The notes beneath the pieces were generated by a model. It saw only the letters and a list, made by a program, of their open reading frames with translations, ran no database searches and had not been told where the DNA came from. DNA of 64,000 bases from a virus. Location: positions 33,581 to 97,580 of the IMG/VR virus record IMGVR_UViG_3300017917_002969, one strand, 5' to 3'. Positions 26,563-56,242 of this stretch are shown here, in pieces. The position numbers were made by a program, and so were the translations under genes. Position 1 is the stretch's first letter. Each line of letters starts with the position of its first letter.

Positions 26563-28383
26563 ATGTCATTTATAACCAAATTAGACTTTTCAAGCAATAG
26601 ACAAGTTAAACAATTCCCAGAAACCTTCACCGTTCTATCTGGTGGTACAAAATTTGGAGTACCATATAGTGGTTTGGCTACTGGACCAGACTTAACAACA
26701 ACTGCTGTTACTCAAACATATACAAACTTAGTAAGCACATTTTCTGGTAATACTGGAACAACAGTATTTTCTTGGTACGACCCTAACATGGCTTTAGGTG
26801 AACCTTACTTATCCGCAATTACACCATCAACCAGTGCTATAACCCAAAATACTGGGGTAATCTTTACCGCAAATACATTAGGAACTACGATTGACGGCTA
26901 TACCTATGCTATAGATTATAGTGGGGTTAGCTTTGACCTTGTTGGTTTGGCTATGATTGATTTAGGTGGTGGTAACTATAGTGGTAGTGTTCATACAAAT
27001 ACTTTAGAATATTATTCTGCTGGAACCATAGATTATAGTGGAAGAACAATATGGGTTGATGTATCTGGAATAACAAGAACTGAAGATTTGATAATTACAA
27101 ATTCGCCAGTAGTTGGTTATGTTTGGAAATGTGTTGATGGTGAAGGTAAAGGAGCTTGGGCTCCAGATGCATCAGGGAATACAACTTATTGGACGGCTGG
27201 AACACTTACAAATTCAATCATACCAATAAATAATTCTTCTAAAAACAATAAATTAGGTATAAATATTGACCCTCAAACAGCCTTTGATTTGATGGCTACT
27301 GACGGTAGTGTACGATTATTGCTTTCTGAATCAATTGCTAGTAATGGTTTTACAACCAGTGGAACAACTTCTGGTTATACACAGATTGGTGTTACAACCA
27401 AATCAAACAATACTGGTGGGTTTGGTTTGTCTATTGGTAGTATAGGTAGTGAAGCGTCTATACCAACTTATGGGCAAACTGGAACAACTTTTATTTTTTC
27501 AAGCGGAGAAAGCAACGGGTTAAATATTATCAAAAATTCTGGGGCTCCATATACTAATAACGATAATTATATAAGATTTTATGCTGGTGGAAACGTTAGT
27601 ACTATTATTAATGCGCACATGCATATTCAAGGTAGTGGTATTACTCAAGGGTATATTGGTCTCAATACATTAACACCAACACAAAGAATTGATGTGAATG
27701 GTAGTGCAAGATTTAGAAGTGTTCAATCACTAGGTGGTGGGAGCGTCTCATTATATATTGATACTGATGGAACTTTATCTTTAACAGCATCAGATGAAAG
27801 ATTAAAAGAAAATATAACACCAATAACAAATGCGTTAGAAACCGTAAAATCATTAAAAGGTGTTAATTTTAATTGGAAAAGTAATGGACAACCTTCATTA
27901 GGTTTTATTGCACAAGATGTTAACTTAGTGGAACCAAAATTAGTATTTACCAACGAAAATACTGAAGAAAAATATATGGGTGTTAATTATGAAATAATAA
28001 CAGCCCTTTTGGTAGAAGCCATTAAAGAACTTACATCTGGCTCAACAGTTTCTGGTAATACATATCTTGAAACGCAGAGTATAATAGCTGAGGACAACAA
28101 TATAGATTTAAACTATGGTGGAAACCAACAAACAGCTTTTGAGGGTGGTATCAGAGTATTACATGCATTAGGACAAGATTTATCTGCTGAATTACTTACG
28201 GATGAAGATGGAAATTGGAGAACAAATAATGATTTCAAACCGAAAGCAATTACTATACCAATATTTACACCATTAAATTCAACTGATAAAAGCGGAAACG
28301 TTGGAAATATAACAAGGGATGAGGATTATTTATACGTTAAAACATCCGATGGTTGGAGAAGAAGTCGTTTAGAAAGTTTTTAA
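26563..28383 (+). CDS. Tail fibre/spike protein with peptidase S74 intramolecular chaperone domain
   Basis: GLNTLTPTQRIDVNG, SDERLKENI, GFIAQDV, GVNYE. Confidence 0.82.
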   Translation: MSFITKLDFSSNRQVKQFPETFTVLSGGTKFGVPYSGLATGPDLTTTAVTQTYTNLVSTFSGNTGTTVFSWYDPNMALGEPYLSAITPSTSAITQNTGVIFTANTLGTTIDGYTYAIDYSGVSFDLVGLAMIDLGGGNYSGSVHTNTLEYYSAGTIDYSGRTIWVDVSGITRTEDLIITNSPVVGYVWKCVDGEGKGAWAPDASGNTTYWTAGTLTNSIIPINNSSKNNKLGINIDPQTAFDLMATDGSVRLLLSESIASNGFTTSGTTSGYTQIGVTTKSNNTGGFGLSIGSIGSEASIPTYGQTGTTFIFSSGESNGLNIIKNSGAPYTNNDNYIRFYAGGNVSTIINAHMHIQGSGITQGYIGLNTLTPTQRIDVNGSARFRSVQSLGGGSVSLYIDTDGTLSLTASDERLKENITPITNALETVKSLKGVNFNWKSNGQPSLGFIAQDVNLVEPKLVFTNENTEEKYMGVNYEIITALLVEAIKELTSGSTVSGNTYLETQSIIAEDNNIDLNYGGNQQTAFEGGIRVLHALGQDLSAELLTDEDGNWRTNNDFKPKAITIPIFTPLNSTDKSGNVGNITRDEDYLYVKTSDGWRRSRLESF

Positions 28384-28386
28384 TAT

Positions 28387-31359
28387 ATGTCATTAATACG
28401 TGAAACCAAATTAAATCCTGTACCAATACAAACTGGATATGGTGTCCCATCACACATATCACCAGCTGGTTCTTTTTATTTTGACTTTAATACTGGTATT
28501 GAATATCAAAATAAAGACGGTGTTAATAATTGGGTTCAATTTTTTGATGGTACAAATAGGGCTACAGATGTGTATGTTACAGGTGGTACGTATTCGTCTG
28601 GTTCGGCCACATTTACCAATAACACAGGTGGCACATTTAGTGTTACTGGATTTACAACTTCTGCTAGTCTTTTAGGTTCTTATTTACCACTTAGTGGTGG
28701 AACTGTAACTGGTAATACAATATTCACATCTGGTTTAACGGCAAATACGCTAAACATAACTAATTATATTGATTTTAACACAGGTACAACAAACCCAACA
28801 CCATTAGGTGGTAGAGTATTTTTTGATAATGGCACAAAGGCTTTAAGTTATTATGACATATTAGGAAGCAACGTACCGATTGCAATGGGACAACAGTTAT
28901 ATACTAGAGTTTATAACGCAACTGGTTCACAAATAGATAAAGGTAAGGTAATTTCAATTACTGGTACATCAAATGGTTTACCTAGTGCTACGCTAGCTGT
29001 TAACACACATGCCATAAATTCTGCAAAACCAATTGGTTTGGCGGCAGAAAATATAGCTAACAATTCAGAAGGTTTGGTTTTAAATAATGGTATTTTAAGT
29101 GGTATCACGTTAAACACCTTTTCAAATGGTGATACATTGTATTTATCGGATACGGTACCTGGTGGTTATGTATCTACAACATCATCCTTGGCATTTACTG
29201 CAAGAACTAACGAAATTGGTTATGTTATCCAAACAGGAACAACTACTGGTAAGATTTATGTTAACATCAACAATGAAGATAGCAATCTTAGTTTAACTGA
29301 TATTGAAAGAAATATTCTTGAGGGTAATGTCATATCAACTGGGACATATGCATTTACTGGTTTAACAAGAGTATCAAATACATTATTTTCTATTGCCACA
29401 ATGAGTGGTTGGGTTGTTAAGAATACGAATGGGTATGCTACATTACCAGAGGTTATAAACGTTATTTATAGTGGTACAACTGGTATAACAACACCATATC
29501 TAACCACAGCTGACGCAACATATGTTTTGATAACAAGTGCAGCAACTGTAACATTACAATCAACTTTTCCAACTCCACAAGAAAGAAGACAAAACATATA
29601 TTTGGGTAAAGTAGTACATCCAAATAGAAGTACTATTCTAAATGTAAACAACACGGTAGATTTTGACGTTAGTCCGATGTCAGCACTTCGTGATATGTGG
29701 ACATCATTTAAACTTATTAATGTTGGTATTATACCTAGCGCAAATGGTGCAAACTTAAATATAAACACGTCAGCTGGTACACTTTGGGGTAACGGAATTG
29801 GATGGGTCACAAATCAGCTTAATCCTAATAGTGTTAGTTTATCTGGAAAATCACCAGCATCGTTTGCATATAGAACACAAACAGGTGGTACAGGAACAGA
29901 AACCACCACAATTGATACTTTAAATTATGATGTTGGTGGAGTTATTACAAATGTTCCAGGTGCTGGTAACTTTACAACGCAAAGAATTTATCAATTCCCG
30001 ACTGGATTGGTGAGGATACAATATGGTCAACATTATTATCCAACGTTAGCAAAAGCATTGGCTGAATTGCCAAATGAAACATTTGTTGAATACTCAAACA
30101 ACAGAGATAATGGTATTCTTATTGGTTATTTAACAGTAAAAGATGGAACAACAGATTTGTCAAATACCAACGATGCTATTTTTACATTTGTTTCTAAATT
30201 TGGTGAGGCTTTAGGTGGTACAGCTGGTTTGTCAACAACAACACTTCAGCAAGCGTATGATAATAGTACAACACCAGAAATCATTATAAATGCAGCCTTA
30301 GATGGTTTAACCATAAAAAACGGTACTGGAAATCCAGACGCAACAACACATTTATTGGAAGGGCAAAATACCGCTGGGGCTGTAACATCATTTATTACAG
30401 CTGCTGGCGGTTTTAGTGGTTCTAGCGTATCCGCAATTACAATTACAACACCTAGTTTTACAGCTAATGCAAATGGTTTGACGGCTAGTACAATATCAGC
30501 TACAACATATCAAAATTTACCAATAGATATACGCACAAGTGGAGCCACATATTCAAATAATACTTTTACATTTACCAATAATACTGGAGGTACATTTAAT
30601 GTGTTATTTAATACTTTAACTGGTTTAACTGTAAATGGTAGTTTATTAGTAACTGGTACAACATATCTTGGTAACGGAACATTTACAAAAGCAGGTAATG
30701 CTACTGGTGATATTCTTCTAGATAATAGTGCAACAGACACTCCTGGTATTTTGTTTTATTACGCAAATAATTCAAACTACGGTATTGATAGTTGGAATGG
30801 GTCATATGATGTACTAAGCGGTCAGTTATTACGTTTTACAAATAAATTAAATGAAACAGGTGGGGCTGTAAAGGCGGCAATAGATACTTCAGGTAATATG
30901 GCAGTTGGTGGTTTTATAAAAGCAAATGCGTGGAGAGCTGGTCAAGTAGTAAACGATATTATGTTAAGTAATACTGAAGTAACTATTAGCACAACAACTA
31001 TTGCAACTAGTACTTCGGATACTGATTTTTTAACATACAGTTACACACCAGTAAGCTCTACAAGTTATTTGGTTATTCATTATCATTTGGCAGATTATAG
31101 GTTTGATAGTGGAACTGGTAATGATTCATATTTTTCTAGAATAAAGGTAGATGGTGCTGAAATTACATATTCAAGACAAAGTACTGTTAACGGAAACCGT
31201 TCTGGAGTTCTTTTCCCTCTAACTGGAAGGTATACAAATTCTAGCACAACCGCTAAATCAATAGTTGTTGCATGTCGTAGAGATTCTGCCGATGATAATA
31301 TAACAATAACAAATTCATCTAGTTCAATGTGGTTGAGGATAACAGAAATAGCTAGATAA
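28387..31359 (+). CDS. Large Thr/Gly-rich fibre or decoration protein
   Basis: YLPLSGGTVTG and TISATTYQNLP modules shared with other fibres here; capsid-fibre-like segment (KPIGLAAENIANN...LYLS). Confidence 0.7.
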   Translation: MSLIRETKLNPVPIQTGYGVPSHISPAGSFYFDFNTGIEYQNKDGVNNWVQFFDGTNRATDVYVTGGTYSSGSATFTNNTGGTFSVTGFTTSASLLGSYLPLSGGTVTGNTIFTSGLTANTLNITNYIDFNTGTTNPTPLGGRVFFDNGTKALSYYDILGSNVPIAMGQQLYTRVYNATGSQIDKGKVISITGTSNGLPSATLAVNTHAINSAKPIGLAAENIANNSEGLVLNNGILSGITLNTFSNGDTLYLSDTVPGGYVSTTSSLAFTARTNEIGYVIQTGTTTGKIYVNINNEDSNLSLTDIERNILEGNVISTGTYAFTGLTRVSNTLFSIATMSGWVVKNTNGYATLPEVINVIYSGTTGITTPYLTTADATYVLITSAATVTLQSTFPTPQERRQNIYLGKVVHPNRSTILNVNNTVDFDVSPMSALRDMWTSFKLINVGIIPSANGANLNINTSAGTLWGNGIGWVTNQLNPNSVSLSGKSPASFAYRTQTGGTGTETTTIDTLNYDVGGVITNVPGAGNFTTQRIYQFPTGLVRIQYGQHYYPTLAKALAELPNETFVEYSNNRDNGILIGYLTVKDGTTDLSNTNDAIFTFVSKFGEALGGTAGLSTTTLQQAYDNSTTPEIIINAALDGLTIKNGTGNPDATTHLLEGQNTAGAVTSFITAAGGFSGSSVSAITITTPSFTANANGLTASTISATTYQNLPIDIRTSGATYSNNTFTFTNNTGGTFNVLFNTLTGLTVNGSLLVTGTTYLGNGTFTKAGNATGDILLDNSATDTPGILFYYANNSNYGIDSWNGSYDVLSGQLLRFTNKLNETGGAVKAAIDTSGNMAVGGFIKANAWRAGQVVNDIMLSNTEVTISTTTIATSTSDTDFLTYSYTPVSSTSYLVIHYHLADYRFDSGTGNDSYFSRIKVDGAEITYSRQSTVNGNRSGVLFPLTGRYTNSSTTAKSIVVACRRDSADDNITITNSSSSMWLRITEIAR

Positions 31360-31412: not shown

Positions 31413-33359
31413 ATGGGTAACATAAAAAACTTTAATTTTAATAAACTACGTGTAAGGTTGTCAAATAGCGACTTTTGGGATTTCTTTTTAGCGGCAGATG
31501 ACAGTCCTTTACAAGGTAGTGGTCCCGTATCATCTGGTGATTGTTTTGTTGTCCATTATGATTTTAACAATGTTTCTATTTACCCAGATAGTGCAACAAC
31601 TGCTTCTACTATATATAGTCTAGTTAGTTGGTCTGGAGCAACCAATACTGGTTATACTTTTAGTTCAATTGGTTTAACTGGTATCGATAACGGACTTATT
31701 ACATTTGAAAAAGACCCATTAGACCCGACAAATCAGAATTTGGTTGAGGCTTTGACTGGTTCTACGTTGATAATACCGTCTGGTGATACAAGATTAATGA
31801 TGCATTTGGTCACTGGTACAACTGGTGATTATGTTTATCCAACAGAAAGGATTAGCAACCCAACTGGCTCTAGTGGTGATTATGTTCAATTTTGTGGTGG
31901 ATTCTATCAAGGATTTTATAAGATTGATGGAAGTTCATATGAAGTATTACCAACGAGGGTAAATCAAGGGTGGGTTGCTGAATTTTGGGTTAATAAACAA
32001 AACATATGTGGTCAAATAACTGGAACAACACTTAATGATGAATATCCCAATAATAAAGGGTTTTTCTTTTATATGGGAACACGTGCTGAAAATAAGTTCT
32101 GGAATCAGTTTTATGGTAATAATACTGGTTGTACTAGTGCTTGTACCGTAAATACAGCTACTACGGAATGTAGTGGATTTACTGGTAGTGCAACAACATG
32201 GTGTACAATACCAAAAGAAAAAGACATTACACTAATTGGTGATTATGGTTTTGGAATCCCATTAAATCCTCCTAGAGTGGACATAACATTAGTAACTAAC
32301 CCATTCTTGATATACGGCAGAGCATATGATTCAAGCGCTCCAAGATTAAGTGGTGTTACAGATAGTATAATACCATCTGGAATCACAAACACTAGTTCTG
32401 ATAACGCTGGTTGTGGTTCTACAAACATATACAGTTATATGTTTAGTACTAATGGATGTGATTTATCAAGCAATGATGGTCTTGGTACTAAAACAGTGTG
32501 TTCATATAGTGGTGGTGGGATTTCAGTTGGTAGAACAAGAGAAGTATCAATTAGCGACCAAAATCCATTTTTAATATATGGTAGAGGTTCTGGTGCTATT
32601 AGTGGTTGTTCATGTAGCGCATGTTGTGGTCCACTTGATGGGTTAGGAAGTGAAACTGTATGTTCTTATGGTCGTGGAAAAACTGAAGAGGTTGAAATAG
32701 ATTATAATTTGGATATAATTGACAATGCGATTGGTTTTAGAATAACAGATGATGGTAGAATTGGTTATAGAATGCTTACAGTAACTGGAACTTGCTATAC
32801 TGCGGCTACAGGTCAAAGACTATATACTAGCGGTGTTACGATTCAAGAGGGTTATTCATCAGCAAATACGGTAAATCCAAATGAATGGACATACATAGCT
32901 ATTAGATATAAAACAAACTACGAGGATAATTGCACACTTAAGTTACCAAAACACAGAAAGGGTAAGTTGATGTTTTATGTTAATGCTAAATTAAAATATA
33001 CCATAAACGAATTTCCAGAATTTATCGCTAGAAAACTAGATGAATATAAAGGAAAGCAAGTAGGGGTACCTTTTAATTTTAGTTTAGGAGGTGGAAGTCA
33101 AGGGCTTATTGATAGTCAAACATTTGACGGACCAGATATGGAAGATAGAGGTTTACCCATAGAAGAAAACTTTGCTGGTACGTTTATTGGTGGAATTTCT
33201 CAATTTAAATTCAATATTTGTGATTTAAGTTATGCCCAAATACAATATAATTATTTGTCAGATTTTTCAAGATATTACCCATCAACCACAAACCTTCTTT
33301 TAACAGAAAGCGCATATCTTTTATTACAAGAAAATGCATTTGGTATTATTTGGTTGTAA
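31413..33359 (+). CDS. Virion protein with LamG/ConA-like segments and a Cys-rich insert
   Basis: GWVAEFWV, WTYIAI, LMFYVNAKL, FIGGISQF pattern; C-terminal LLTE..YLLLQE. Confidence 0.6.
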   Translation: MGNIKNFNFNKLRVRLSNSDFWDFFLAADDSPLQGSGPVSSGDCFVVHYDFNNVSIYPDSATTASTIYSLVSWSGATNTGYTFSSIGLTGIDNGLITFEKDPLDPTNQNLVEALTGSTLIIPSGDTRLMMHLVTGTTGDYVYPTERISNPTGSSGDYVQFCGGFYQGFYKIDGSSYEVLPTRVNQGWVAEFWVNKQNICGQITGTTLNDEYPNNKGFFFYMGTRAENKFWNQFYGNNTGCTSACTVNTATTECSGFTGSATTWCTIPKEKDITLIGDYGFGIPLNPPRVDITLVTNPFLIYGRAYDSSAPRLSGVTDSIIPSGITNTSSDNAGCGSTNIYSYMFSTNGCDLSSNDGLGTKTVCSYSGGGISVGRTREVSISDQNPFLIYGRGSGAISGCSCSACCGPLDGLGSETVCSYGRGKTEEVEIDYNLDIIDNAIGFRITDDGRIGYRMLTVTGTCYTAATGQRLYTSGVTIQEGYSSANTVNPNEWTYIAIRYKTNYEDNCTLKLPKHRKGKLMFYVNAKLKYTINEFPEFIARKLDEYKGKQVGVPFNFSLGGGSQGLIDSQTFDGPDMEDRGLPIEENFAGTFIGGISQFKFNICDLSYAQIQYNYLSDFSRYYPSTTNLLLTESAYLLLQENAFGIIWL

Positions 33360-33730: not shown

Positions 33731-35275
33731 ATGAGTCAACTTTTAGTAAATAATATAAACCCATACAGTGGTTCACAATTAACTTTAAATGGTGTTATAA
33801 TAGGCAATGGCACATTGTCAGCAACAACTTATTTAAACGTACCAACAACAACTTTTAGTGGTGGAACTGTTTCTGGTCTAACAGCAACAACAGTTAGTGC
33901 AACAACTTATTTGAACCTACCAGTTAGTAATAGTAATTTTCTACCATTATCTGGAGGTACAGTAACTGGTTCAACTATATTTAATAGTGGGTTAAATTCA
34001 AATAGCATATCAGCTACCACTATATCAGCCACTACATTTTATGGTGATGGTAGCAACCTTACTGGTATTAGTTCTGGAGCTGCATTTACTGGAGGTACAG
34101 TAAGTGGTGCAAGTATATTTACAAATGGATTAACAGCTAGTACTATATCAGCTACTACTTATCAAAATTTACCAACTAGTACTATAGCAACAAGCGGAAG
34201 TACAATTTACACCACATCACCATCCACTAGTAATTTTTCAACAGGCAACAGTATATTTTTTGGTAATAATGCTGGCAATCAAGCAACAAGTGCATCGTTT
34301 TCAAACTTTTTTGGAAGATGGGCTGGGTCTGGCGCAACTAGTGCAAGTGTTTCTAACTTTATTGGTGCTTCTGCTGGTCAAGGGGCAACTAGCGCAAGTA
34401 ATTCAAACTTTTTTGGTTCTGCTGCTGGTTCTCAAGCAATTTTAGCAAGTTATTCTAACTTTTTTGGTGCTGGTGCTGGTCAAGGGGCAACAAGTGCAAG
34501 TAATTCAAACTTTTTTGGTAATCAAGCTGGTTATCAAGCAACTGGTGTAAGTGCTTCTAACTTTATAGGTGCTAGTGCTGGTGCTCAAGCAACTGATGCA
34601 TATGATTCAACGTTTATTGGTACATATGCTGGTTATCAAGCAACTAACGCAAATAGGTCTAATTTTATTGGTTATTATGCTGGTTTTCAAGCAACTAACG
34701 CAAGTGGTTCAAACTTTTTAGGTCTTGATGCTGGTCGGGGAGCAACTAACGCAAATGGTTCTAACTTTATTGGTGGTTCTGCTGGTAATGGGGCAACTGG
34801 CGCTAGTAATTCAATATTTATCGGACCTTTTGCTGGTTATTTTGCTGAAACAGCTAACAGAAGTATATTTATAGGTGTTAATGCTGGTAATAATGATGAT
34901 GTTAATAATAGCGGAGGAAAATGGTCGATACTTATTGGGGCCTCAACTAGCACTGGCGGTTTTTCTAATAGCATTGCATTGGGTGCTAGTGCTACAAATA
35001 CATCTGAAAATCAATTTTTAATTGCTCCATCAATAACTGGAACCGTGACAAATGGTTCTATTGGTGCTGGTGTGTCAGCAATTAATAATTCAGCAGTGTT
35101 ACAAGCGGATTCAACAACCAAGGGTTTCTTGCCTCCAAGAATGACAGGTGCAGAAGCTGAAGCTATTGTAAGTCCAGCAGAAGGTTTAATAGTATATGCT
35201 ACAGTTAGTGGTAGTACTATTACAACTAAAGGATGGTGGGGTTATGATGGTTCAACGTGGGTAAAATTAAATTAA
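33731..35275 (+). CDS. Fibre/adhesin with about 13 17-aa solenoid repeats
   Basis: S(N/T)F(F/I)GxxAGxxAT repeats; C-terminal STTKGFLPPRMT...EGLIVY...WGYDGSTW module. Confidence 0.78.
   Translation: MSQLLVNNINPYSGSQLTLNGVIIGNGTLSATTYLNVPTTTFSGGTVSGLTATTVSATTYLNLPVSNSNFLPLSGGTVTGSTIFNSGLNSNSISATTISATTFYGDGSNLTGISSGAAFTGGTVSGASIFTNGLTASTISATTYQNLPTSTIATSGSTIYTTSPSTSNFSTGNSIFFGNNAGNQATSASFSNFFGRWAGSGATSASVSNFIGASAGQGATSASNSNFFGSAAGSQAILASYSNFFGAGAGQGATSASNSNFFGNQAGYQATGVSASNFIGASAGAQATDAYDSTFIGTYAGYQATNANRSNFIGYYAGFQATNASGSNFLGLDAGRGATNANGSNFIGGSAGNGATGASNSIFIGPFAGYFAETANRSIFIGVNAGNNDDVNNSGGKWSILIGASTSTGGFSNSIALGASATNTSENQFLIAPSITGTVTNGSIGAGVSAINNSAVLQADSTTKGFLPPRMTGAEAEAIVSPAEGLIVYATVSGSTITTKGWWGYDGSTWVKLN
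34250..34900 (+). repeat. 51-bp coding tandem repeat, about 13 units
   Basis: Recurring tcaaacttt(t/a)ttgg...gctgg at 51-nt period. Confidence 0.85.
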
Positions 35276-35308: not shown

Positions 35309-38074
35309 ATGGCAAATGGTTTAACATTAAGAACATTAATAAGCCCATATGGTGATACAACAAAGGGTAGTGTGTTGAGTCATCAAGAGGTTGATGGAGA
35401 TTTTATATATCTTAAGGGTCAAGTAATATACACATCGACTACAGATACAAATGGAACCATACTTACCAAATACAATGGTGATAATATTAACATATTTGAT
35501 ACACATATTACTGGTGGTACTTTTGATAGCGTAACTGGTATAATTACGTTTAGAAATAATACAGGAAATCCAGCCAATGATTTTGAAGTGACTGGTTTAA
35601 CAGGTTCAACATCACCAATAACCCTTGAATTAAATAACTCTTTATTTTCAACAGCAATTGATGGTGGTTTACAAGCCACAAATGCAACAAATTCAAACTT
35701 TTTTGGTCTTAGTGCTGGTACTCTATCTACCAATGCAAGCGGTTCAACATTTATTGGTTATAAAGCTGGTTATAGCGCACCAGATGCTCCTGATTCAAAT
35801 TTTTTAGGATATGAGGCTGGTTATCAAGCAACAACTGCAAATAATTCAAACTTTTTTGGTAAAAAAGCTGGTTATCAAGCAACTGGTGCAAGTGCTTCTA
35901 ACTTTATCGGACTTAGTGCTGGTTGTGGAGCAACTGACTCAGGTGGGTCAAACTTTATTGGTGTTGGTGCTGGTTTAAATGCTACAAATGCGGCTGGGTC
36001 AAACTTTATTGGTTCTAATGCTGGTTCTCAAGCAACAAATGCATATACTTCAAACTTTATAGGACTTGGTGCTGGTTTTCAAGCAATAAATGCAAATGAC
36101 TCTAATTTTATTGGAAATTCTGCTGGTTATGGAGCAACTGGTGCAAGTATTTCTACATTTATTGGTGCAGAAGCTGGTTTTCAAGCAATAAATGCCAGTG
36201 GTTCAACATTTATTGGTGTTGGTGCTGGTTCTGGAGCAACCAACGCAAGTGATTCTATGTTCTTTGGTACTTCAGCTGGTCAAGGGGCAACCGATGCCAG
36301 TGGTTCAATATTTATTGGTTATGAAAGTGGTTATGAGGCAACTGATGCTTATGTAGGAACATTTATTGGACCACAAGCTGGGTACCAAGCAACAAATGCC
36401 TTTGGTTCAGTATTTATAGGTGGTGTGGCTGGGGGTTTGGCAGCAAACGCCTTTGTTTCAACATTTATTGGTGCATATGCTGGTCAAGGGGCAACTGATG
36501 CAAATAGGTCAACATTTATTGGTTATGAAACTGGTTATGAGGCAACCAATGCAAGCGGTTCAACATTTATTGGTTATCAAACAGGTACTGGAGCTACTAA
36601 CGCTTCATTTTCATTATTTATGGGTTTTAATTCTGGTATTAATGCAATAAATGCAAAAAATTCTGTTTTTCTAGGTACTGGAAGTGGTTCTGGGGCGACT
36701 AATGCTAATAATTCAAACTTTATAGGTATTAATGCTGGTAATTCAGCGTCAGCTGCAACTTATTCAAACTTTATTGGTTCACAAGCTGGTTTAGGGGCTA
36801 TTAGCGGTAGTAGTTCAAACTTTTTTGGTTATAGAGCTGGTGAAGGGGCAACTAATGCTAATAATTCAAACTTTTTAGGTGAAGAGGCTGGTTTTGGAGC
36901 ACTAAGTGCATATAATTCAACATTTATGGGTTATGAAGCTGGTTATAGAGCAATTAATGCTGATTCATCTGTTTTTATAGGATATCAAGCTGGTTTTAAT
37001 GGGTCAGCCCACACCGATTCAAACTTTATTGGTTACCAAGCTGGTTATAGATTAAATTCAACTGGAAGTTCTGCCAACTCAAACTTTTTTGGTTATAGAG
37101 CTGGATACATAACAGGTGCTAATGGAAACATTAATAACTCAAACTTTTTAGGTGAAGAGGCTGGTAGCGGTGCGATTGGTGCAACCAATTCAAACTTTTT
37201 TGGTAATCAGGCTGGTTATTTGGCAACAAGTTCATCTAATTCAAACTTTTTTGGTGATTCTGCTGGTTATGGGGCAACAGGTGCAGATAATTCAAACTTT
37301 TTTGGTAATTCTGCTGGTCTAAATGCTGATAATGCTAATGATTCAAACTTTATTGGTTATAGAGCTGGTTATGGAGCGAATGGTGCAGATAAATCAAACT
37401 TTTTTGGTTATAGAGCTGGTAATCAGGCAACAAATTCAAGCTATTCAAACTTTATTGGAGAAGATGCTGGTTTTGGAGCAACAAATTCAAGCTATTCAAA
37501 CTTTATTGGTCAACAGGCTGGTAATTCAGCGTCAGATTCAACTCATTCAAACTTTATTGGTTATGAAGCTGGTCAAAAGGCAACTGGTTCAACTGGTTCA
37601 AACTTTATTGGTTATCAAGCTGGTTCTAGTGCTGATATAAAAGGATATGGTGACTACAATATAGCGATTGGTTACAAGGCTGGTTATGTTTTTACTGGTC
37701 AAACAAGTATTGGTGATAATAACATCATAATAGGTAACAGTATAACACTTTCTGGTGGTTCACAAAATGGGTTAAACATAGGTGGTGTTATTTTTGGTAC
37801 AGGAATGAATTCACAAACTACAAGTCCTCAAACATCAAATAGTGGTGTGACATCAAATTCGGCTGCAATTGGTATTAGAGTTATATCACCTACCGCAACA
37901 CTTGATGTTAGTGGTACAACTGGTTATAATCAGTTTAGAATGAGAACATCATATACACCTAGTACTAGTGGTGATACAAACGGTAATATTGGTGACATTG
38001 CTTGGGATAATAATTATGTTTATGTTAAAACAAACCTTGGTTGGGGTAGGGCAGCATTAAGTTACGCATTTTAA
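35309..38074 (+). CDS. Fibre/adhesin with about 38 17-aa solenoid repeats
   Basis: N-terminal KGSVLSHQEVDGDF fibre-attachment-like motif; repeat array; C-terminal GNIGDIAWDNNYVYVKT..W. Confidence 0.8.
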   Translation: MANGLTLRTLISPYGDTTKGSVLSHQEVDGDFIYLKGQVIYTSTTDTNGTILTKYNGDNINIFDTHITGGTFDSVTGIITFRNNTGNPANDFEVTGLTGSTSPITLELNNSLFSTAIDGGLQATNATNSNFFGLSAGTLSTNASGSTFIGYKAGYSAPDAPDSNFLGYEAGYQATTANNSNFFGKKAGYQATGASASNFIGLSAGCGATDSGGSNFIGVGAGLNATNAAGSNFIGSNAGSQATNAYTSNFIGLGAGFQAINANDSNFIGNSAGYGATGASISTFIGAEAGFQAINASGSTFIGVGAGSGATNASDSMFFGTSAGQGATDASGSIFIGYESGYEATDAYVGTFIGPQAGYQATNAFGSVFIGGVAGGLAANAFVSTFIGAYAGQGATDANRSTFIGYETGYEATNASGSTFIGYQTGTGATNASFSLFMGFNSGINAINAKNSVFLGTGSGSGATNANNSNFIGINAGNSASAATYSNFIGSQAGLGAISGSSSNFFGYRAGEGATNANNSNFLGEEAGFGALSAYNSTFMGYEAGYRAINADSSVFIGYQAGFNGSAHTDSNFIGYQAGYRLNSTGSSANSNFFGYRAGYITGANGNINNSNFLGEEAGSGAIGATNSNFFGNQAGYLATSSSNSNFFGDSAGYGATGADNSNFFGNSAGLNADNANDSNFIGYRAGYGANGADKSNFFGYRAGNQATNSSYSNFIGEDAGFGATNSSYSNFIGQQAGNSASDSTHSNFIGYEAGQKATGSTGSNFIGYQAGSSADIKGYGDYNIAIGYKAGYVFTGQTSIGDNNIIIGNSITLSGGSQNGLNIGGVIFGTGMNSQTTSPQTSNSGVTSNSAAIGIRVISPTATLDVSGTTGYNQFRMRTSYTPSTSGDTNGNIGDIAWDNNYVYVKTNLGWGRAALSYAF
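35693..37657 (+). repeat. 51-bp coding tandem repeat, about 38 units
   Basis: Counted from the translation; e.g. identical 32-mers at 37427-37458 and 37478-37509. Confidence 0.9.
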
Positions 38075-50300: not shown

Positions 50301-50415
50301 TAACACTCAAATATTAAGTAGAAATTCAACAACAGGAAATATTGAATATACTGATAGTACTAGTATAGGACTTACTTTTAATAACATTCAAAGAATTGCG
50401 TTTTTAAAGATATGA
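47323..50415 (+). CDS. Long Thr/Gly-rich modular fibre protein
   Basis: Repeated YGDGSNLT, GLTxNGxLxVTGNT, TISATTYQNLP, LSGGTVTG modules. Confidence 0.75.
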   Translation: MSHVGRGYDVNQTFIVEPLDNGIPIFSACTAIYANFITSCDGNTSISLDDGIINFDGVLNTNSDLSANTIFASTYYGDGSNLTNINFGTIVTGLTINGDLTVTGNTLLNGLTGNIISATTISANTISATTISGITFYGDGSNLTNINFGTTVTGLTVNGDLTVTGNTLLNGLTANTISATTYQNLPVTADTFTTDFTYSSNTFTIFRNQGLSALTATIDVMSGLTINGDLTVTGNTTLQSISANTITGDTFFSGSTPLTTIINNIASLYSGSSSADYLALSGGTVTGSTTFTNGLTVNNSLLLSGASNPLTIKGLLSSNDTTLISIDNNGIIHTLPTSAITGTTSISNAATGGTYSNGTISLSGTGTLGTITGFTDFYVTGFTLSNSDLILKQNISDSYSAFTVNLPFLPLTGGTLTGSLTAPTYYGDGSNLTGISRGGSGGQLYYFNISNLQSPYYELSTSATTTSEQTISATTGSYGTVLVGGFMTPVGVPNTTSIPAGILSFYLHSYDGGNNHNFNIYCQLYKRDTGGTETLLFTSDQSAVIGNVVSMVITDGYFSGATLDASDRLVVKVYGENLTNQTRTIYFVSEGSQHYSFALTTIPIFLDTYVTGFTYSNNVFTIKQNNSQPDLPLTINSVTGWTVNGNLTVTGNTSLKELTASTISATTYYNIPLFSGGTITGLTVNGNLIVTGATSFTNGLTANTISATTYQNLPVTADTFTTGFTYTANTLTIFRNQGLSALTATIDVMTGLTINGNLIVTGNTTLQSLSSTTISGNTFISGNTQLSTVINNIASQYDPSGRFLNLSGGTVTGNTTFINGLSGSSITATTYFSGSTPLTSVIDNIASQYNPSGRFLSLSGGTVTGSTSFTAGLNANTISATTYQNLPVTADTFTTDFTYSSNTFTISRNQGLSALTASINTMTGLTVNGTLNATTISATTISATTFYGNGSNLTGISSSGTFTGGTVNGSTVFTNGLSANTFNITTIPTNNNSNTQILSRNSTTGNIEYTDSTSIGLTFNNIQRIAFLKI
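47829..50040 (+). repeat. Dispersed identical DNA blocks within the fibre gene
   Basis: 77 bp identical 47829-47905 = 49413-49489; 63 bp identical 47875-47937 = 49978-50040. Confidence 0.85.
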
Positions 50416-51251
50416 TTATTTTAACAAACACAACGGATAAGATTCAAGTTTCTTTAGGTTCAGCAGTTGCTACAACACAATTAAGATGTTATGCGTCTTA
50501 TAGAGATACAACATCAACTACAATAACACCTAATAGAAATGTTGTTTTAACCAATGGTGTTACCCCTGTAGATTTGGTTGGTTCACCAGCTTCATCAACC
50601 CAAAGAGTTGTTGATTATTTAAGTGTATATAATGCAGATACAGCATCAGCGACTGTTACCGTTAATTTTAATGATAATGGAACTTTATATAATCTTGCTG
50701 TTATAATATTAGGTGTTGGTGAAAAATTGGAGTATCAAGAAGGTGAAGGATTCAAAGTATTATCAACAATAGGTGCTTATAGGATTGCAAGCAACCCATC
50801 AAGTATTACAGAAAAGACTGCATTAAGTTTTGTTTATATGGGTTCAGATTCTACGGGTCCTACTTCAACTAGCTTTATAGATATCACTAATTTAAGTTTT
50901 TCAGTTATTGCGAATAAAACATATTGGTTTAGATTTGTAATACCGTATACCGCAGCAAACCTTACTGTAGGTGCTAAATTTGCAATAAATGGACCTGCTA
51001 ATCCAACATTTTTAATTTATCAAACAGAAAACACCAATGGAACTGGTGTACAAACTTATAATAGAGGTATAATATCATATGATGGTACTACAACATCAGC
51101 TAACGCAGCAACACTAGTTTCTAATTTAGCTATAATAGAAGGGATTATTACCCCATCAGTTAATGGTACAGTAATAGCTAGAATTGGAAGTGAAGCGACA
51201 CAAACATCAACACCAAAAGCTGGTTCTTTTGTAAAATATTTAGAAATTTAA
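50412..51251 (+). CDS. Fibre tip/receptor-binding-like protein, paralogue 1
   Basis: Shared N-domain (TDKIQ, YRDTT, VGSPASSTQRV, EKLEYQEG) plus variable beta-rich C-domain. Confidence 0.6.
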   Translation: MIILTNTTDKIQVSLGSAVATTQLRCYASYRDTTSTTITPNRNVVLTNGVTPVDLVGSPASSTQRVVDYLSVYNADTASATVTVNFNDNGTLYNLAVIILGVGEKLEYQEGEGFKVLSTIGAYRIASNPSSITEKTALSFVYMGSDSTGPTSTSFIDITNLSFSVIANKTYWFRFVIPYTAANLTVGAKFAINGPANPTFLIYQTENTNGTGVQTYNRGIISYDGTTTSANAATLVSNLAIIEGIITPSVNGTVIARIGSEATQTSTPKAGSFVKYLEI

Positions 51252-51252
51252 T

Positions 51253-51396
51253 ATGAAAGTAGGTGATGTAATATTAATAGATAGACTAGAATGGACAATA
51301 TGGTTAATTGAAGATAATGTTTACCATATAAAAAATAATAAAGGTAATGGTATGTGTGGAGACTTATATTGGTTAAATTCATTAATAGATATATGA
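51253..51396 (+). CDS. Small 47-aa protein, below the ORF track cutoff
   Basis: MKVGDVILIDRLEWTIWLIEDNVYHIKNNKGNGMCGDLYWLNSLIDI*; fills the gap, ATGA overlap with the next start. Confidence 0.65.
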   Translation: MKVGDVILIDRLEWTIWLIEDNVYHIKNNKGNGMCGDLYWLNSLIDI

Positions 51397-52247
51397 TTAT
51401 TTTATCAAATACAACAGACAAGATTCAGGCGGTATTAACCAATGCTGTGACAACAAATCAATTAAGTTGTCTTGCAGTCTATAGAGACACCACATCTACG
51501 TCTATCACACCATTAAGAAATGTTTTATTAACCAATGGTGTTACTCCTGTAGATTTTGTTGGTTCACCAGCTTCATCAACCCAAAGAGTTATTGATTATT
51601 TAAGTATATTCAATAGAGATACCGCAGTTGCTGAAGTAACAATAAGATTTGTAGATAATGTTACTAACTATCGTTTATTTGTTGTTAGACTAGCCCCAAA
51701 TGAAAAGTTAGAATATCAAGAAGGTTATGGTTTTAAAGTTATTTCTAACGGTTATTCAATAAAACAAACAACAACTTTTGATTCACCGACAACAAATACA
51801 AACCTTAGCATGTTTGTATTAAAAAATGATATAACACTTTCACCAAGTGTTGCAAATGCTTACCTTGATATACCATCATTAACGTTCCCTGTGGTAGCAA
51901 ACAGTAAAGTTTATTTTAAGTTTTTTATAATATATACTACGGACAATACAACTACTGGTACAAGATTTAATATTTTAGGTCCTTCAGCTAGTGGTCTGAT
52001 AACTTATCAAACATTTAATTCTTTAACATCCACATCAATTACTATAGCAACAGGTCAAAATACTTATTTGAACGTTACTAGTAGCAATGCCACATCTGCA
52101 AATAAAGATGGTAACACAGTTAATGTTGAAGGGTATATTTATCCTGATACAAACGGGATTGTTATACCATCATTTGGTTGTGAGGTTTCACTTGGCTCAG
52201 TGACAATAAAATCAAATTCGTTTGTACAATATCATCAAATAGCATAG
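51393..52247 (+). CDS. Fibre tip/receptor-binding-like protein, paralogue 2 (start corrected to ATG 51393)
   Basis: MIILSNTTDKIQ matches the starts of paralogues 1 and 3. Confidence 0.62.
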   Translation: MIILSNTTDKIQAVLTNAVTTNQLSCLAVYRDTTSTSITPLRNVLLTNGVTPVDFVGSPASSTQRVIDYLSIFNRDTAVAEVTIRFVDNVTNYRLFVVRLAPNEKLEYQEGYGFKVISNGYSIKQTTTFDSPTTNTNLSMFVLKNDITLSPSVANAYLDIPSLTFPVVANSKVYFKFFIIYTTDNTTTGTRFNILGPSASGLITYQTFNSLTSTSITIATGQNTYLNVTSSNATSANKDGNTVNVEGYIYPDTNGIVIPSFGCEVSLGSVTIKSNSFVQYHQIA

Positions 52248-52249
52248 TT

Positions 52250-53098
52250 ATGATTATTTTAAATAGCACAGACAAGATTCAAATTAAATTAAGTAGAAAC
52301 ATAGTACTTAATCCATTAGAATGTTACGTTTCATATAGAGATACTACATCATCAACAATAACACCAAGTAGAAACTTTATAACTATAAGCGGTACATCGG
52401 CTGTAGATTTGGTTGGTTCACCAGCTTCATCAACCCAAAGAGTTGTTGATTATTTAAGTATACATAATCCAGATATTTCAGCTAACACTGTTACAGTACA
52501 ATTTGATGTTAGTAGTACACCGTATGAATTAACAGTAACCTCATTGCAAATCGGTGAAAAACTAGAATATCAAGAAGGGGTTGGTTTTAAATCTATTGAT
52601 GACTATGGCGCATTAAAAACAGGTAATAAATTAGGATATAACAACATAGCTGGTTTAAGTTCGGTAACAATAAATTCAGATGTTGTTAATTCAAATGCTG
52701 TTGCAAATACGATTGCTGATATTACTGGATTAAGTTTTTCAGTAACCAGTGGTGCAACTTATTGGTTTAGATTTGTAATACCTTTTACATCAGCGGCTAG
52801 TACCACGGGCTCTAGGTTTTCAATTAGTGGAGCGAGTACTTCAGCATTATATTTTCAAAGCCAATACCCTTCAAGTATTACAGCTCAAGCGACAAATGTG
52901 GGTCTATCCGCATTTGATACTCCAGCTGCCGCTACTACTACTTCACCAACTACGCTGGTCGGACTTGCTATTATTGAGGGTGTTGCAACATTCTCTGCAA
53001 ATGGTACATTAATTGGTAGGTTTTCATCTGAAGTTGCGAACTCAGCGATAACAGTAAAAGCTGGTGCAACCGTTTATTATAAACAACTTAATCCTTAA
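52250..53098 (+). CDS. Fibre tip/receptor-binding-like protein, paralogue 3
   Basis: Same N-domain; C-domain with DITGLSFSV..G.TYWFRF. Confidence 0.6.
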   Translation: MIILNSTDKIQIKLSRNIVLNPLECYVSYRDTTSSTITPSRNFITISGTSAVDLVGSPASSTQRVVDYLSIHNPDISANTVTVQFDVSSTPYELTVTSLQIGEKLEYQEGVGFKSIDDYGALKTGNKLGYNNIAGLSSVTINSDVVNSNAVANTIADITGLSFSVTSGATYWFRFVIPFTSAASTTGSRFSISGASTSALYFQSQYPSSITAQATNVGLSAFDTPAAATTTSPTTLVGLAIIEGVATFSANGTLIGRFSSEVANSAITVKAGATVYYKQLNP

Positions 53099-53298: not shown

Positions 53299-53392
53299 AA
53301 AATAAATATATCTTAATAACTGGGTCTCTTTTTGAAAAAAAGCTAATATTTATAATAAACTAAACGATAAAGTAAACGTAAAACACAAAAAC

Positions 53393-56242
53393 ATGGCAAA
53401 TTCAGTATTCGTTAGTCCAGGTGTTTATACATCAGAAAGGGATTTATCATTCATTACACGTCAAGTAGGTGTAACAACACTTGGATTGGTTGGTGAGACC
53501 ACTATTGGTCCTGCTTTCCAACCAATATTTGTTAGCAACTATGGTGAATTTCAATCTTTTTTTGGTGGATGCAATGCGACTAAAGTAAAAGACACAGGTG
53601 CTCCTCAGTATGAGTTACCCTATATTGCAAAATCATATTTAAGTCAATCTAATCAATTATTTGTTACCAGAGTATTAGGTTTATCTGGTTATGATGCTGG
53701 ATTAGCTTGGGCAATCACTCTTGATTCAGCAATAAACACATCAAGTTCTGGTACAACTGGAGGTGGTAGTACATATTCACCACTCATAACTTTCTCAGCA
53801 ACATCTGCTGGAACTATAACATCTTTGGTGTCTAATGACCCATTTGTTCAATCATTTATTAATGATGGAACACTAACAGTTGACCTTGCATTCTTAAGTT
53901 CAGCATCAACAGGTGCTACCGCAAATATCGGACCTGTTTTCAGCAAGTCTGGTAGCAACTTTAGTGGTGTTTCTTTCAATCTTTATGTTAATGCTACTAG
54001 TTACACAGGTGCTGGTATGACAGCTCCTATTACTGGTACCACTACTGGTGTTACCGTATATTATTCTGGAAGTTCATATTCTGAAGTTGAAAATAAAGTT
54101 GTTGCATTGCTTCGTTCAAGAGGATATGTTGACGTAACAGACCAATCAGTTGTATTTGAAGTTAGTGCTGCTACAAATGTTAGTATTAGTGGTGCTTATA
54201 CTGGTGCAACTACTGACCCTCTTGGTCTTTTTGCGTTTACTGGTACTTCAACAATTCAAGGTGCATTTGAATACCAAGTTTCTATGGATAGAACTCAGAG
54301 AAACTATTTACCAAAAGTATTAGGTAGAACTGCTCAAGATGGTAACACAGCTATATTTGTTGAAGAACTTTATGATGTAATGTTTAGAGAATATTTAGCT
54401 GAGAACAAGATTAGAGGTATAAAACAATCTCTTATACAATACTATGATGACTTTTCTGATTACCTTAATGAATTTCAACCAGCTGTTACACCATATGTTG
54501 TATCAGAATTGCGTGGTAATAAAGTATTAAGATTATTTAGATTCTGGACTATTTCTGATGGTAATGCTGCTAACGAACAATTTAAGATTTCTATTACAAA
54601 TATCAAACCTGACACAAAAGAATTTGATGTTAGAATTAGAGGTTACTATGACACAGATGCACAACCAGTAATACTTGAATCATTTACACGTTGTTCTATG
54701 GACCCAACTTCTAACAATTACATTGCTAGAAGAATTGGTACTATCGATGGAAATTATGTATCAAGGTCTTCATATGTTTTGGTTGAATTAGATGATACTT
54801 CAGATACTAGCGATGCTTTCCCAGCTGGTTTTATTGGTTATCCAATTCGTAATTACCAAACAAATAGCAATCCAACAGTAGGAGACCCTACTATCATGTA
54901 TAAGACATCTTATGGTGCTTTTGAAAATAAGCGTAAATATTATTTAGGTATTTCTGAAACCGTAGGTATTGATTCTGACTTGTTTGATTATAAGGGTGTT
55001 CCAACAACAAGTAGTCCAGATATTTGGACTGGTTTAACCCATGGTTTCCACATGGATAGCGGAGCTACTCAAGTTACAATTGATAATGTATTTATCACAA
55101 TAAATAATAGTGGTACTACATATAGCCCAACATTCGTGTTTGATACTGGTGATGCTCAGTTTAGAACTGAAGCTGGTTTGATTGGTGGACCTTATGAATA
55201 TGTATATTCTCGTAAATTCACACTTGTTCCTTTCGGTGGTTTTGACGGATGGAATGTGTATAACACAAGAAGAAGCAATACAGATAGATATTTAATCAAT
55301 GGAACATACGGTATAGCTGGTTTGAATAGCGGTTCATTTAAACAAAGAACACTATCAAATGGTGACTTGGGTATCAACTCTGACTACTATGCTTATTTGG
55401 AAGCTATTTGGACATTTAGAAATCCTGAAGCTGTAAACATCAACGTATTTGCCACTCCAGGTATTGATGCGTTTGATAATACAAACTTAATTGAAGCTAC
55501 AATTGATATGATTGAAACTGATAGAGCTGACTCGTTATATATCATGACAACACCTGATTTCTATGATGATTCAATCTTGACAGTGGATGATGTTGCTGAT
55601 AGAATGGCTGATATGTATGATAGCAATTATTCTTGTACTTACTGGCCATGGATTCAAATCAACGACTCTGAAAACAACGTATTGGTTTGGGTTCCACCTA
55701 CAAGAGATGTGGTTAGAAATATCGCTTTAACTGATAACATTGCTTTCCCTTGGTTTGCGGTTGCTGGTATTCAGCGTGGTGATGTTGACGCTATTCAAGC
55801 TCGTAAGAAACTTACTCTTTCTGAGAGAGATACTCTTTACGAAAATAGAATCAACCCAATTGCTACATTTACAAGTGATGGTATCAAAATTTGGGGTAAC
55901 AAAACTCTTCAAGTTAAAGAAACTGCACTAAACAGAATAAACGTTAGAAGACTATTGCTACAAGCTCGTAAGCTTATCTCTGCTGTTGCTATCAGACTCC
56001 TATTTGAACAGAATGATACAGTTGTAAGAAACCAATTCTTGGCACTTGTTAATCCAATATTGGATAACATTAGAACCGAAAGAGGTTTAACTGACTTCCG
56101 TGTTGTTCTTTCAAACGACCCAGAAGACATCGACAGAAATCAATTAACTGGTCAAATCTTCTTGAAACCAACAAGAAGTCTTGAATTCATCCAAATTGAG
56201 TTCGTTATTATGAACACTGGTGCTTCGTTTGATAACATTTAA
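53393..56242 (+). CDS. Contractile tail sheath protein (gp18-like)
   Basis: FVSPGVYTSERDLS, YWPW, PWFAVAG..RG, INPI, WGNKTL, RINVRRL, KPTRSLEFI. Confidence 0.96.
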   Translation: MANSVFVSPGVYTSERDLSFITRQVGVTTLGLVGETTIGPAFQPIFVSNYGEFQSFFGGCNATKVKDTGAPQYELPYIAKSYLSQSNQLFVTRVLGLSGYDAGLAWAITLDSAINTSSSGTTGGGSTYSPLITFSATSAGTITSLVSNDPFVQSFINDGTLTVDLAFLSSASTGATANIGPVFSKSGSNFSGVSFNLYVNATSYTGAGMTAPITGTTTGVTVYYSGSSYSEVENKVVALLRSRGYVDVTDQSVVFEVSAATNVSISGAYTGATTDPLGLFAFTGTSTIQGAFEYQVSMDRTQRNYLPKVLGRTAQDGNTAIFVEELYDVMFREYLAENKIRGIKQSLIQYYDDFSDYLNEFQPAVTPYVVSELRGNKVLRLFRFWTISDGNAANEQFKISITNIKPDTKEFDVRIRGYYDTDAQPVILESFTRCSMDPTSNNYIARRIGTIDGNYVSRSSYVLVELDDTSDTSDAFPAGFIGYPIRNYQTNSNPTVGDPTIMYKTSYGAFENKRKYYLGISETVGIDSDLFDYKGVPTTSSPDIWTGLTHGFHMDSGATQVTIDNVFITINNSGTTYSPTFVFDTGDAQFRTEAGLIGGPYEYVYSRKFTLVPFGGFDGWNVYNTRRSNTDRYLINGTYGIAGLNSGSFKQRTLSNGDLGINSDYYAYLEAIWTFRNPEAVNINVFATPGIDAFDNTNLIEATIDMIETDRADSLYIMTTPDFYDDSILTVDDVADRMADMYDSNYSCTYWPWIQINDSENNVLVWVPPTRDVVRNIALTDNIAFPWFAVAGIQRGDVDAIQARKKLTLSERDTLYENRINPIATFTSDGIKIWGNKTLQVKETALNRINVRRLLLQARKLISAVAIRLLFEQNDTVVRNQFLALVNPILDNIRTERGLTDFRVVLSNDPEDIDRNQLTGQIFLKPTRSLEFIQIEFVIMNTGASFDNI

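Follow-up and report, generated by a model that had tools for sequence, protein, structure and literature searches.

Do the outer tail proteins of a large phage carry a signal of their own for the attachment of sugars, or does a short and often repeated pattern in them reflect the way they fold? This question is raised by 64,000 nucleotides of the IMG/VR virus record IMGVR_UViG_3300017917_002969 (positions 33,581 to 97,580, hereafter called the window). The initial annotation of this stretch had picked out the four-residue motif [ST][GA]xT in tail fibres, a lectin-like protein and the tail sheath, and had proposed that, together with an island of glycan genes, it points to a phage-encoded O-glycan coat. 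Our analysis leads us to suggest, tentatively and with somewhat less than even confidence, that hydrophobic-[ST]-[GA]-x-T is the acceptor motif of a phage-encoded cytoplasmic O-glycosylation of fibres, outer sheath and lectin-like protein.

A recount reproduced the numbers given at the outset, namely 18 sites in the fibre encoded at 26563, 18 in the lectin-like protein encoded at 31413, 11 in the sheath, two in the 1237-amino-acid (aa) polymerase and none in the tail tube, and the "many more" ascribed to other fibres came to 24 at 28387, 15 at 33731 and 65 at 47323 (genes are named by their first coordinate; Table 1). Another fibre, at 35309, which had not been listed, holds 17. Pooled over these seven virion proteins, the motif occurs 168 times where 33.7 sites are expected (5.0-fold), and the remaining 48 proteins of the window hold 11 sites compared with 12.8 expected (0.86-fold). 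Correction for composition had been set beforehand as the test on which the proposal could fail. The excess persisted when residues were shuffled over the whole protein and within blocks of 40, 20 and 10 residues, with z values of 4.0-5.5 for the sheath, about 5-6 for the 33731 and 35309 fibres, 6.2-7.1 for 28387, 7.8-9.5 for 26563, 10-12.7 for the lectin-like protein and 16-18 for 47323. A composition artefact is thus ruled out (z 4-18 after global and local shuffles). A repeat or codon artefact at the DNA level was likewise ruled out: codon usage at motif positions equals usage elsewhere, the sole deviation being a preference for ACT at position-1 Thr, and the signal therefore acts at the protein level.

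The motif is sharply defined, since near-variants show no enrichment. Observed/expected ratios were 1.05 with Ser at position 4 ([ST][GA]xS), 0.85 with Val/Ile at position 4, 0.81 with Ser at position 2 ([ST]SxT), 1.19 with Asp/Asn at position 1 ([DN][GA]xT), 1.39 for the reversed motif and 0.86-1.6 when the spacing between the motif parts was changed by +1 or -1 residue. In the non-repetitive proteins, Thr stands at +3 after 48% of all [ST][GA] pairs and Ser/Thr precedes 65% of all [GA]xT. That x varies freely across unrelated folds had been part of the original argument. Free variation holds in general, with exceptions at three sites of the lectin-like family, where x is a conserved Cys, and at sheath site 546, where it is Leu/Met. 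As for the folds, the 28387, 33731 and 47323 fibres contain homologous repeat modules, 33731 and 35309 share another. There are at least four settings without mutual sequence similarity, namely the shared fibre module, the S74 fibre at 26563, the lectin-fold protein and the outer sheath regions, and the last three, which lie outside the module, hold 47 sites together. In the S74 fibre, 16 of 18 sites lie N-terminal to the chaperone domain. A small open reading frame (ORF) of 93 aa (G000:C1:3350-3631) also contains three motif copies compared with 0.34 expected.

The window makes up the right-hand 64 kb of a viral contig of 97.6 kb (G+C 31%), for which CheckV estimates 29% completeness. At least 217 IMG/VR contigs carry a related sheath (69-85% identity). 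Since six of these sheath-sharing relatives are complete genomes of 304-362 kb (two of the six with terminal repeats), the contig belongs to a jumbo myovirus family with genomes of ~300-360 kb. The 306-kb relative G001 shows the excess in approximately ten proteins only, which form two clusters, with fibres and sheath in one of them, and the remaining 349 ORFs hold 91 sites compared with 80 expected. The second G001 cluster (G001:C1:154944-169303), ~40 kb downstream of the sheath in a region past the end of the present contig, consists of five motif-enriched proteins (289-1223 aa), none of which has a PHROG match.

Outside this family the excess is lost. T4 gp34, gp37, gp12, gp18 and fifteen other T4 proteins showed none. 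The sheath of Microcystis phage Mel-JY01, alignable for 58% of its length with 37.5% identity, has a single site where 1.5 are expected, with no motif in the conserved columns, and that of Flavobacterium phage immuto has three compared with 2.7 expected, with one immuto fibre reaching ~2.5-fold at most. The sheath of the uncultured phage LR756508 is mildly enriched (5 vs 1.1 expected). A general feature of sheaths, fibres or beta-rich surface proteins is ruled out by T4, Mel-JY01 and immuto, and because outgroup sheaths and fibres show no comparable excess, the motif is specific to this lineage.

Conservation within the lineage was most readily followed in the sheath. Its 11 sites (aa 119, 138, 170, 173, 214, 218, 258, 270, 546, 556 and 573) were placed as first claimed, eight at aa 119-270, three at aa 546-573 and none in aa 601-949, and all fall into lineage-specific outer regions (aa 119-273 and 546-576). 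Each of 65 distinct sheath homologues carries 3-14 sites, mostly 8-12, compared with ~2.5 expected. Eight alignment columns retain the motif in 52-100% of sequences; within them Ser and Thr alternate at position 1 and Gly and Ala at position 2, and the position-4 Thr is near-invariant. In the variable sheath regions (54-66% identity), this Thr is kept in 81% of cases compared with 45% for other Thr residues (p 4e-4) and the position-1 Ser/Thr in 77% compared with 57% (p 0.02), with x conserved at background level. The sequence alignments thus indicate purifying selection on motif positions in otherwise variable surface domains. The sheath excess resides wholly in the approximately eight conserved columns, and the variable columns, with 2.6 sites per protein, equal the expectation from composition.

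The lectin-like protein is non-repetitive. With Foldseek, its AF2 model (pTM 0.70) matched CBM40 and the PilC lectin module at E values of 3e-4 to 7e-4, so that the earlier label "LamG-like" is supported at the level of a concanavalin-A-like jelly-roll, and on this model it is probably a receptor-binding protein. Its family (36 sequences, mean identity 58%) carries 4-23 sites compared with 1-2 expected, on average 8.2 at conserved and 5.3 at variable columns where 1.4 are expected for the whole protein; part of the variable-column sites may be alignment slippage. Conserved Cys residues cluster at aa 238-265, a loop for which the model is poor, and hint at disulfides or at metal binding.

Structural mapping, from which surface loops had been expected, placed the sites in mixed settings. 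The sheath AF2 model is confident for aa 101-350 alone (pLDDT 73-91), a region holding eight sites, of which 170 and 258 lie in loops, 138 and 173 at or before strand starts, 119 at a loop-strand junction, 214 and 218 inside a long strand and 270 in a short helix. In the model of the lectin-like protein, sites lie mostly in loops or at most one residue from a strand start. By our count over both models, position 4 is next to a strand start in ~8 of 26 mapped sites compared with ~14% expected, which in such models is a weak tendency and not one structural context. When the full sheath model was used for a VIA-align search, its badly modelled helices dominated the result.

The second half of the proposal concerns the glycan island (3199-18385), which lies ~8 kb from the fibre operon starting at 26563. 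The island is real and consists of soluble enzymes only, as judged from Pfam matches and membrane prediction: it holds at least nine glycosyltransferase (GT) domains plus sugar-nucleotide genes, and no membrane-like segment was found in any island protein. Because membrane segments are lacking, the island encodes no flippase, polymerase, lipid-carrier transferase or oligosaccharyltransferase. The accessory glycan genes occupy 3199-16403, and next to them a 668-aa GT fusion, likewise free of membrane segments, carries a PF13712/PF00535 domain at aa 18-211. The island is largely syntenic in G001, where the gene order is as in the present phage. The GT17-like, DUF5672 and 9576 genes are absent from five complete relatives and the GDP-mannose dehydratase is found in four of the five, and PF13712, present in all five, was the only one of five island genes tested with such spread. 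Its fusion partner in relatives is a GT2, a GT4 or a short extension. Such a pattern, one enzyme kept and its extenders varying, would be expected if the acceptor is conserved and the glycan diversifies. The 234-aa product of the 9576 gene (9576-10280, minus strand) has no Pfam match and is 93% identical in G001, the highest identity of any island gene between the two genomes.

Outside the clade, PF13712 is absent from T4, Mel-JY01, immuto and LR756508, with Mel-JY01 and immuto each possessing two other GT2 genes, and a tblastn search of the domain against isolated phages gave no match. The co-occurrence that had been expected was seen for this GT domain, which five of five complete genomes possess and all four motif-poor outgroups lack, within one clade only. 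A search for PF13712 representatives returned 3118 relatives, as sequences with no genomic context. Two distant representatives were used as queries; one yielded no locus and the other one divergent contig of the same broad lineage, whose lectin-like protein is enriched in the motif (7 sites vs 0.9 expected). A GT-less carrier was sought from the fibre side as well. The 33731 fibre module has 945 relatives, of which the best 120 carry the motif at ~6-fold, and all 30 mid-size IMG/VR contigs with the module were 9-27% fragments of the same jumbo group.

Promoter-like sites bear on when the two gene sets would be expressed. Sites of the Bacteroidota type lie ahead of the DNA polymerase gene (38484/38555, plus strand) and at 22050, ahead of an operon that passes through a dUTPase-like gene and a split inosine monophosphate dehydrogenase (IMPDH) into the GT island. 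Because such sites precede both, the host phylum is probably Bacteroidota. A different element, ATATTTAT, precedes the structural genes 26563, 31413, 46265, 53393, 56321, 57924 and 58581 by 21-47 nt and, from this placement, is probably the late promoter of the phage family. The copies at this distance from start codons, of structural genes and of a few other genes, are at 26538, 31392, 38084, 43513 (minus), 46241, 53346, 56300, 57881, 58539, 26523 (minus), 3197 (minus) and 20086 (minus). A single copy within the island, at 5214 (minus) inside gene 5126-5719 and 85 nt upstream of the GDP-mannose dehydratase gene, could serve both deoxyhexose genes as an internal late promoter, or it may have arisen by chance in DNA so rich in A and T.

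The motif is lineage- and hydroxyl-specific, sharp and conserved in unrelated outer domains of one particle. Folding physics would hardly account for this by itself, which points to a lineage-specific factor acting on these proteins; a GT is the obvious candidate because GT genes neighbour the motif-bearing genes, and SgtA and Aah/TibC offer precedents. In the scheme that we infer, down to its biochemical steps, the acceptor residue and PF13712 as the initiator, soluble enzymes of the early operon would supply sugar nucleotides, the GDP-mannose dehydratase and epimerase/reductase presumably leading to GDP-fucose or a related 6-deoxyhexose and the mutase to UDP-galactofuranose. The conserved PF13712 GT-A domain would then add the first sugar to the motif hydroxyl of nascent or newly folded structural proteins, and the GTs fused to this domain or encoded nearby, together with methyltransferases, a set that varies from relative to relative, would extend it to a strain-specific glycan. 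What is recognised may be the motif in a strand-loop-strand context and not the sequence by itself; the fibre repeats would then serve both as structural units and as arrays of acceptors. Of the sequon-directed O-glycan first proposed, the motif excess, its conservation, its restriction to the lineage and the adjoining island have been borne out, and the glycan itself is what we infer from them.

A number of observations weigh against this assignment. As many as 104 of the 168 sites lie in the homologous modules of the 28387, 33731 and 47323 fibres, where the flanking residue is hydrophobic at -1 in 68% of cases and commonly also at +4. Since the motif is there one unit of a repeat with a 5-residue period, structure suffices to explain these three richest fibres, and the statement that an enzyme signal fits better than a structural repeat fails for them. 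The 65 sites in the 1030-aa trimeric 47323 fibre would be very dense if modified. Positional conservation in the sheath would equally be predicted by a structural role, and in the lectin-like family the conserved Cys takes the x position in T-G-C-T, S-[GA]-C-T and S-G-C-T (aa 238-265). The major capsid protein is not enriched (4 sites vs 1.7 expected, all internal), nor are the tail tube (0 vs 0.24, a comparison of little statistical power) and the three S/T-rich tip proteins (4 vs 4.0); a "coat over the virion" was thus too broad a description, and tail and fibres alone are concerned. On the enzyme side, Pfam revealed no tetratricopeptide repeat (TPR) or other protein-binding domain in any GT of the window, and the link between motif and PF13712 amounts to a single evolutionary contrast because all positive genomes belong to one clade. 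Further, no gene of the GT island has ATATTTAT in its own upstream region. The island appears to be transcribed early, together with nucleotide-metabolism genes, and this timing and the dUTPase-like neighbour could point to a nucleotide or DNA role.

What else could the motif be? Its role might be structural only, as a beta-turn or strand-cap unit, peculiar to this lineage, of a solenoid-like fibre repeat that spread by module exchange among outer proteins and then diverged past BLAST detection, with the island serving the envelope, DNA or another acceptor. We regard this as a real possibility, if a rather doubtful one. Neighbouring sites are most often 5, 10, 11 and 15 residues apart, in runs of two to four five-residue units and none longer, and the unit presumably resembles the pentapeptide-repeat consensus at its [ST]-G positions. 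The hydrophobic flanks, the homology of the three richest fibres in their motif modules, the fully positional sheath excess, the strand-start tendency (~8 of 26 sites) and the early-looking, dUTPase-linked island are all in agreement with a structural role. A structural element of general benefit should, however, also be enriched in further phage surface proteins rich in beta structure and in the remaining proteome, and it is not, and the substitutes expected at a turn or cap (Asp/Asn at position 1, Ser at position 2, Val/Ile/Ser at position 4) score 0.8-1.2-fold. Exchanges of Gly and Ala at single columns oppose a Gly-only backbone conformation, the sites occupy mixed secondary-structure settings, and the confident sheath domain, with its helices and long strands, is unlike the fibre repeat. 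The 5-residue periodicity is not present in the sheath or the lectin-like protein, and no fibre gave a Pfam match to a pentapeptide or other repeat (E <= 0.01). Another tandem repeat, of the type SNFIGY.AG, occurs in 35309-38074 and in aa 173-470 of 33731-35275, again with no Pfam match; we take it to resemble the head repeats of trimeric autotransporter adhesins. Sequence searches of the PDB found no match for the fibres or the lectin-like protein, tblastn of the 47323 fibre against isolated phages found none either, searches with the 33731 and 28387 fibres gave matches via non-repeat domains only, and a protein-atlas search with the fibre module gave weak leads only (bactofilin, and BppL_N at 0.87).

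Whatever the motif means, the island might instead glycosylate phage DNA or remodel host surface glycans, which we consider unlikely though not negligible. The PF13712 gene follows a dUTPase/dCTP-deaminase-like gene in the relatives examined (in G035, G037 and G038 the gene directly upstream is dUTPase-like or of the same size and position), and the 8735-9574 protein has a weak match to PF09198, the T4 beta-glucosyltransferase family, that lies below the cut-off (E 5e-4, 20 bits vs cut-off 27). Some phages are known to hypermodify their DNA with sets of GTs (bioRxiv 10.1101/2023.12.21.572611; PMC13326640). By the residue criteria that separate dUMP- from dCMP-type homologues (PMC13326640), the thymidylate synthase homologue of this phage is of the canonical dUMP type, with no dCMP-specific changes and with the Asp of VDTFLG, the Asn of PFNIASY and the Leu of LPPCH kept. 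A Tet_JBP search of three complete genomes, run without a positive control, gave no match. With a canonical thymidylate synthase and no Tet_JBP match, there is no visible pathway to a hydroxylated base that could receive a sugar. At least nine GT domains together with genes for deoxyhexose, galactofuranose and methylation far exceed the needs of known DNA glycans, and a flippase, polymerase or ligase for a surface polymer is lacking. Peripheral O-antigen GTs are soluble too, so remodelling of host glycans could still be served by enzymes of this kind. Finally, another lineage-specific factor could read the motif, as in phosphorylation, acylation, ester cross-linking or the docking of an assembly chaperone or partner. 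This we hold to be improbable, even though the motif is sharp, hydroxyl-specific and limited to the outer proteins of one particle and nothing in the data links it chemically to a sugar: no kinase, acyltransferase or similar enzyme appeared in the Pfam scans of the window, a large GT arsenal adjoins, and a chaperone site would not be expected across architectures as unlike as sheath, lectin-like protein and fibres.

Table 1. Features of the window discussed in the text (coordinates refer to the window).
Feature	Position	Strand	Remarks
Epimerase/reductase	3199-4134	-	Pfam
GDP-mannose 4,6-dehydratase	4119-5129	-	Pfam
Methyltransferase	5126-5719	-	Pfam
UDP-galactopyranose mutase	6530-7621	-	Pfam
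GT17-like protein	8735-9574	-	Pfam
DUF5672 protein	11875-12498	-	Pfam
GT2	12495-13187	-	Pfam
GT11	13207-13995	-	Pfam
GT2	13982-14695	-	Pfam
GT2_4	14695-15444	-	Pfam
Two-glycosyltransferase fusion, 668 aa	16379..18385	-	N-terminal PF13712 (GT-A), C-terminal GT4-like (GT-B)
dUTPase/dCTP-deaminase-like gene	20900..21481	-	Upstream of GT island
Promoter-like site, Bacteroidota type	22050..22112	-	TTG, 17-23 bases, TAnnTTTG; from sequence only
Tail fibre, 606 aa	26563..28383	+	C-terminal Peptidase_S74 intramolecular chaperone, aa 410-461; PHROG tail fibre families
Fibre	28387..31359	+	Repeat modules common to 33731 and 47323; PHROG search
Lectin-like protein, 648 aa	31413..33359	+	Model: concanavalin-A-like jelly-roll
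Fibre	33731..35275	+	N-terminal module units such as LSGGTVTG, ISATTY.NLP
Fibre	35309..38074	+	SNFIGY.AG-type repeats in common with 33731
Fibre, 1030 aa	47323..50415	+	Many sites in hydrophobic-[ST]-[GA]-x-T runs with 5-residue period
Three S/T-rich paralogous tip proteins	50412..53098	+	Internal negative control
Late-promoter-like ATATTTAT	53346..53353	+	47 nt before sheath start
Tail sheath	53393..56242	+	C-terminal core, aa ~660-948, T4 gp18-like
Tail tube	57924..58412	+	PHROG search

Several other features of the contig were observed. It encodes a gp23-type capsid protein, a portal and a terminase, the latter two with inserted elements: to the left of the window, G000:C1:12552-15602 and 15917-19264 encode a terminase large subunit of 1016 aa and a portal of 1115 aa with an HNH match, both containing large inserts. 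Inserts also break up the thymidylate synthase homologue (G000:C1:118-2169, again left of the window), although it is a single open frame of 696 aa. The IMP dehydrogenase/GMP reductase-like gene (18385-20878, minus strand) is in two pieces, an N-terminal half at 20105-20878 with a Hint domain at its end and a C-terminal half at 18385-19053, separated by an unrelated 343-aa ORF; in G001 the halves are adjacent and the ORF is absent. The genome appears to be rich in inteins or homing elements.

We found no published description of the [ST][GA]xT motif or of glycosylation in this phage family. The "moraphage" paper on large aquatic Bacteroidota phages reports core glycosyltransferases of unknown role (PMC12619734). 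If O-glycosylation at the motif is true, tailed phages would gain their first defined acceptor motif for virion glycosylation, and virion glycosylation would be on record for the first time outside actinobacteriophages; it would also give a role to the large unexplained glycan islands of many environmental jumbo and T4-like phages. Tails and fibres would be predicted to be shielded by sugars, affecting host range, protease and grazer resistance and particle stickiness, and a compact cytoplasmic pair of sequon and enzyme would become available for glycoengineering. The wider picture, a jumbo-phage family spread over the globe with its own four-residue sequon, a PF13712 initiator, variable diversifiers and strain-specific sugar coats, we put forward with slightly more reserve still. 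If the motif is structural, it would still be a fibre building block of sharp definition, found across the lineage and missing from Pfam.

Compared with known systems, the present one shows partial likenesses in several directions. T-even DNA glucosylation differs in that dCMP-hydroxymethylase-type residues are not seen here. In pentapeptide and other beta-solenoid repeats, units of five residues, each with a central hydrophobic residue and then [ST]-[G], follow one another many times, and four of them form one coil. The fibre repeats may be of this kind in their period; they differ in lacking a Pfam match, in their short runs and in having Thr for the usual Asp/Asn, and the motif also occurs in globular domains. 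SgtA of Clostridioides difficile, a soluble GT-A enzyme with a TPR, attaches beta-O-GlcNAc to Thr in the Gly-Pro-Thr repeats of BclA3 (PMC7157674). The likeness lies in a soluble GT-A enzyme, a Gly-x-Thr acceptor repeated in a surface fibre and extension of the glycan by other enzymes. Here, however, no TPR was matched, Ser/Thr at -3 is needed, Ala is accepted for Gly, and the acceptors are not collagen-like: no Gly-X-Y triplet arrays were found in them, and their spacing peaks at 5 residues, not 3.

The heptosyltransferases Aah and TibC hyperglycosylate Ser/Thr of AIDA-I and TibA in the cytoplasm (PMC3835316, PMC4358343), acting on strand-loop-strand motifs in these beta-helical adhesins (PMC3835316). 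Glycosylation of Ser/Thr at many sites of a repetitive beta-helical surface protein within the cytoplasm would be shared with the phage system. Aah and TibC are iron-containing dodecamers of which no homologue was seen here, and Aah works without a consensus whereas the present motif is sharp.

General O-glycosylation in Bacteroidota uses the sequon D-(S/T)-(A/I/L/V/M/T) and takes place outside the cytoplasm from lipid-linked glycans. It shares with our proposal the probable host phylum and the O-glycosylation of many proteins at a short sequon, and differs in its lipid-linked extracytoplasmic machinery, which the present island does not encode. This known sequon was rejected as an explanation, since it occurs at near-expected counts in all seven proteins.

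Mycobacteriophages reportedly O-glycosylate their virions by phage-encoded glycosyltransferases, as Freeman et al. (2023) are summarised in PMC12619734. In both cases soluble phage GTs lie beside structural genes, the proposed acceptors belong to the virion of the phage itself and the glycan would be exposed on the outside. The mycobacteriophage glycans are reported to sit at the C-terminal ends of capsid and tail-tube subunits, whereas here the tube is devoid of the motif and the capsid is not enriched. Further, the sites of the present phage are internal and numerous and follow a defined four-residue pattern, the GT set is far larger, and the host is of the Gram-negative type, probably a member of the Bacteroidota.

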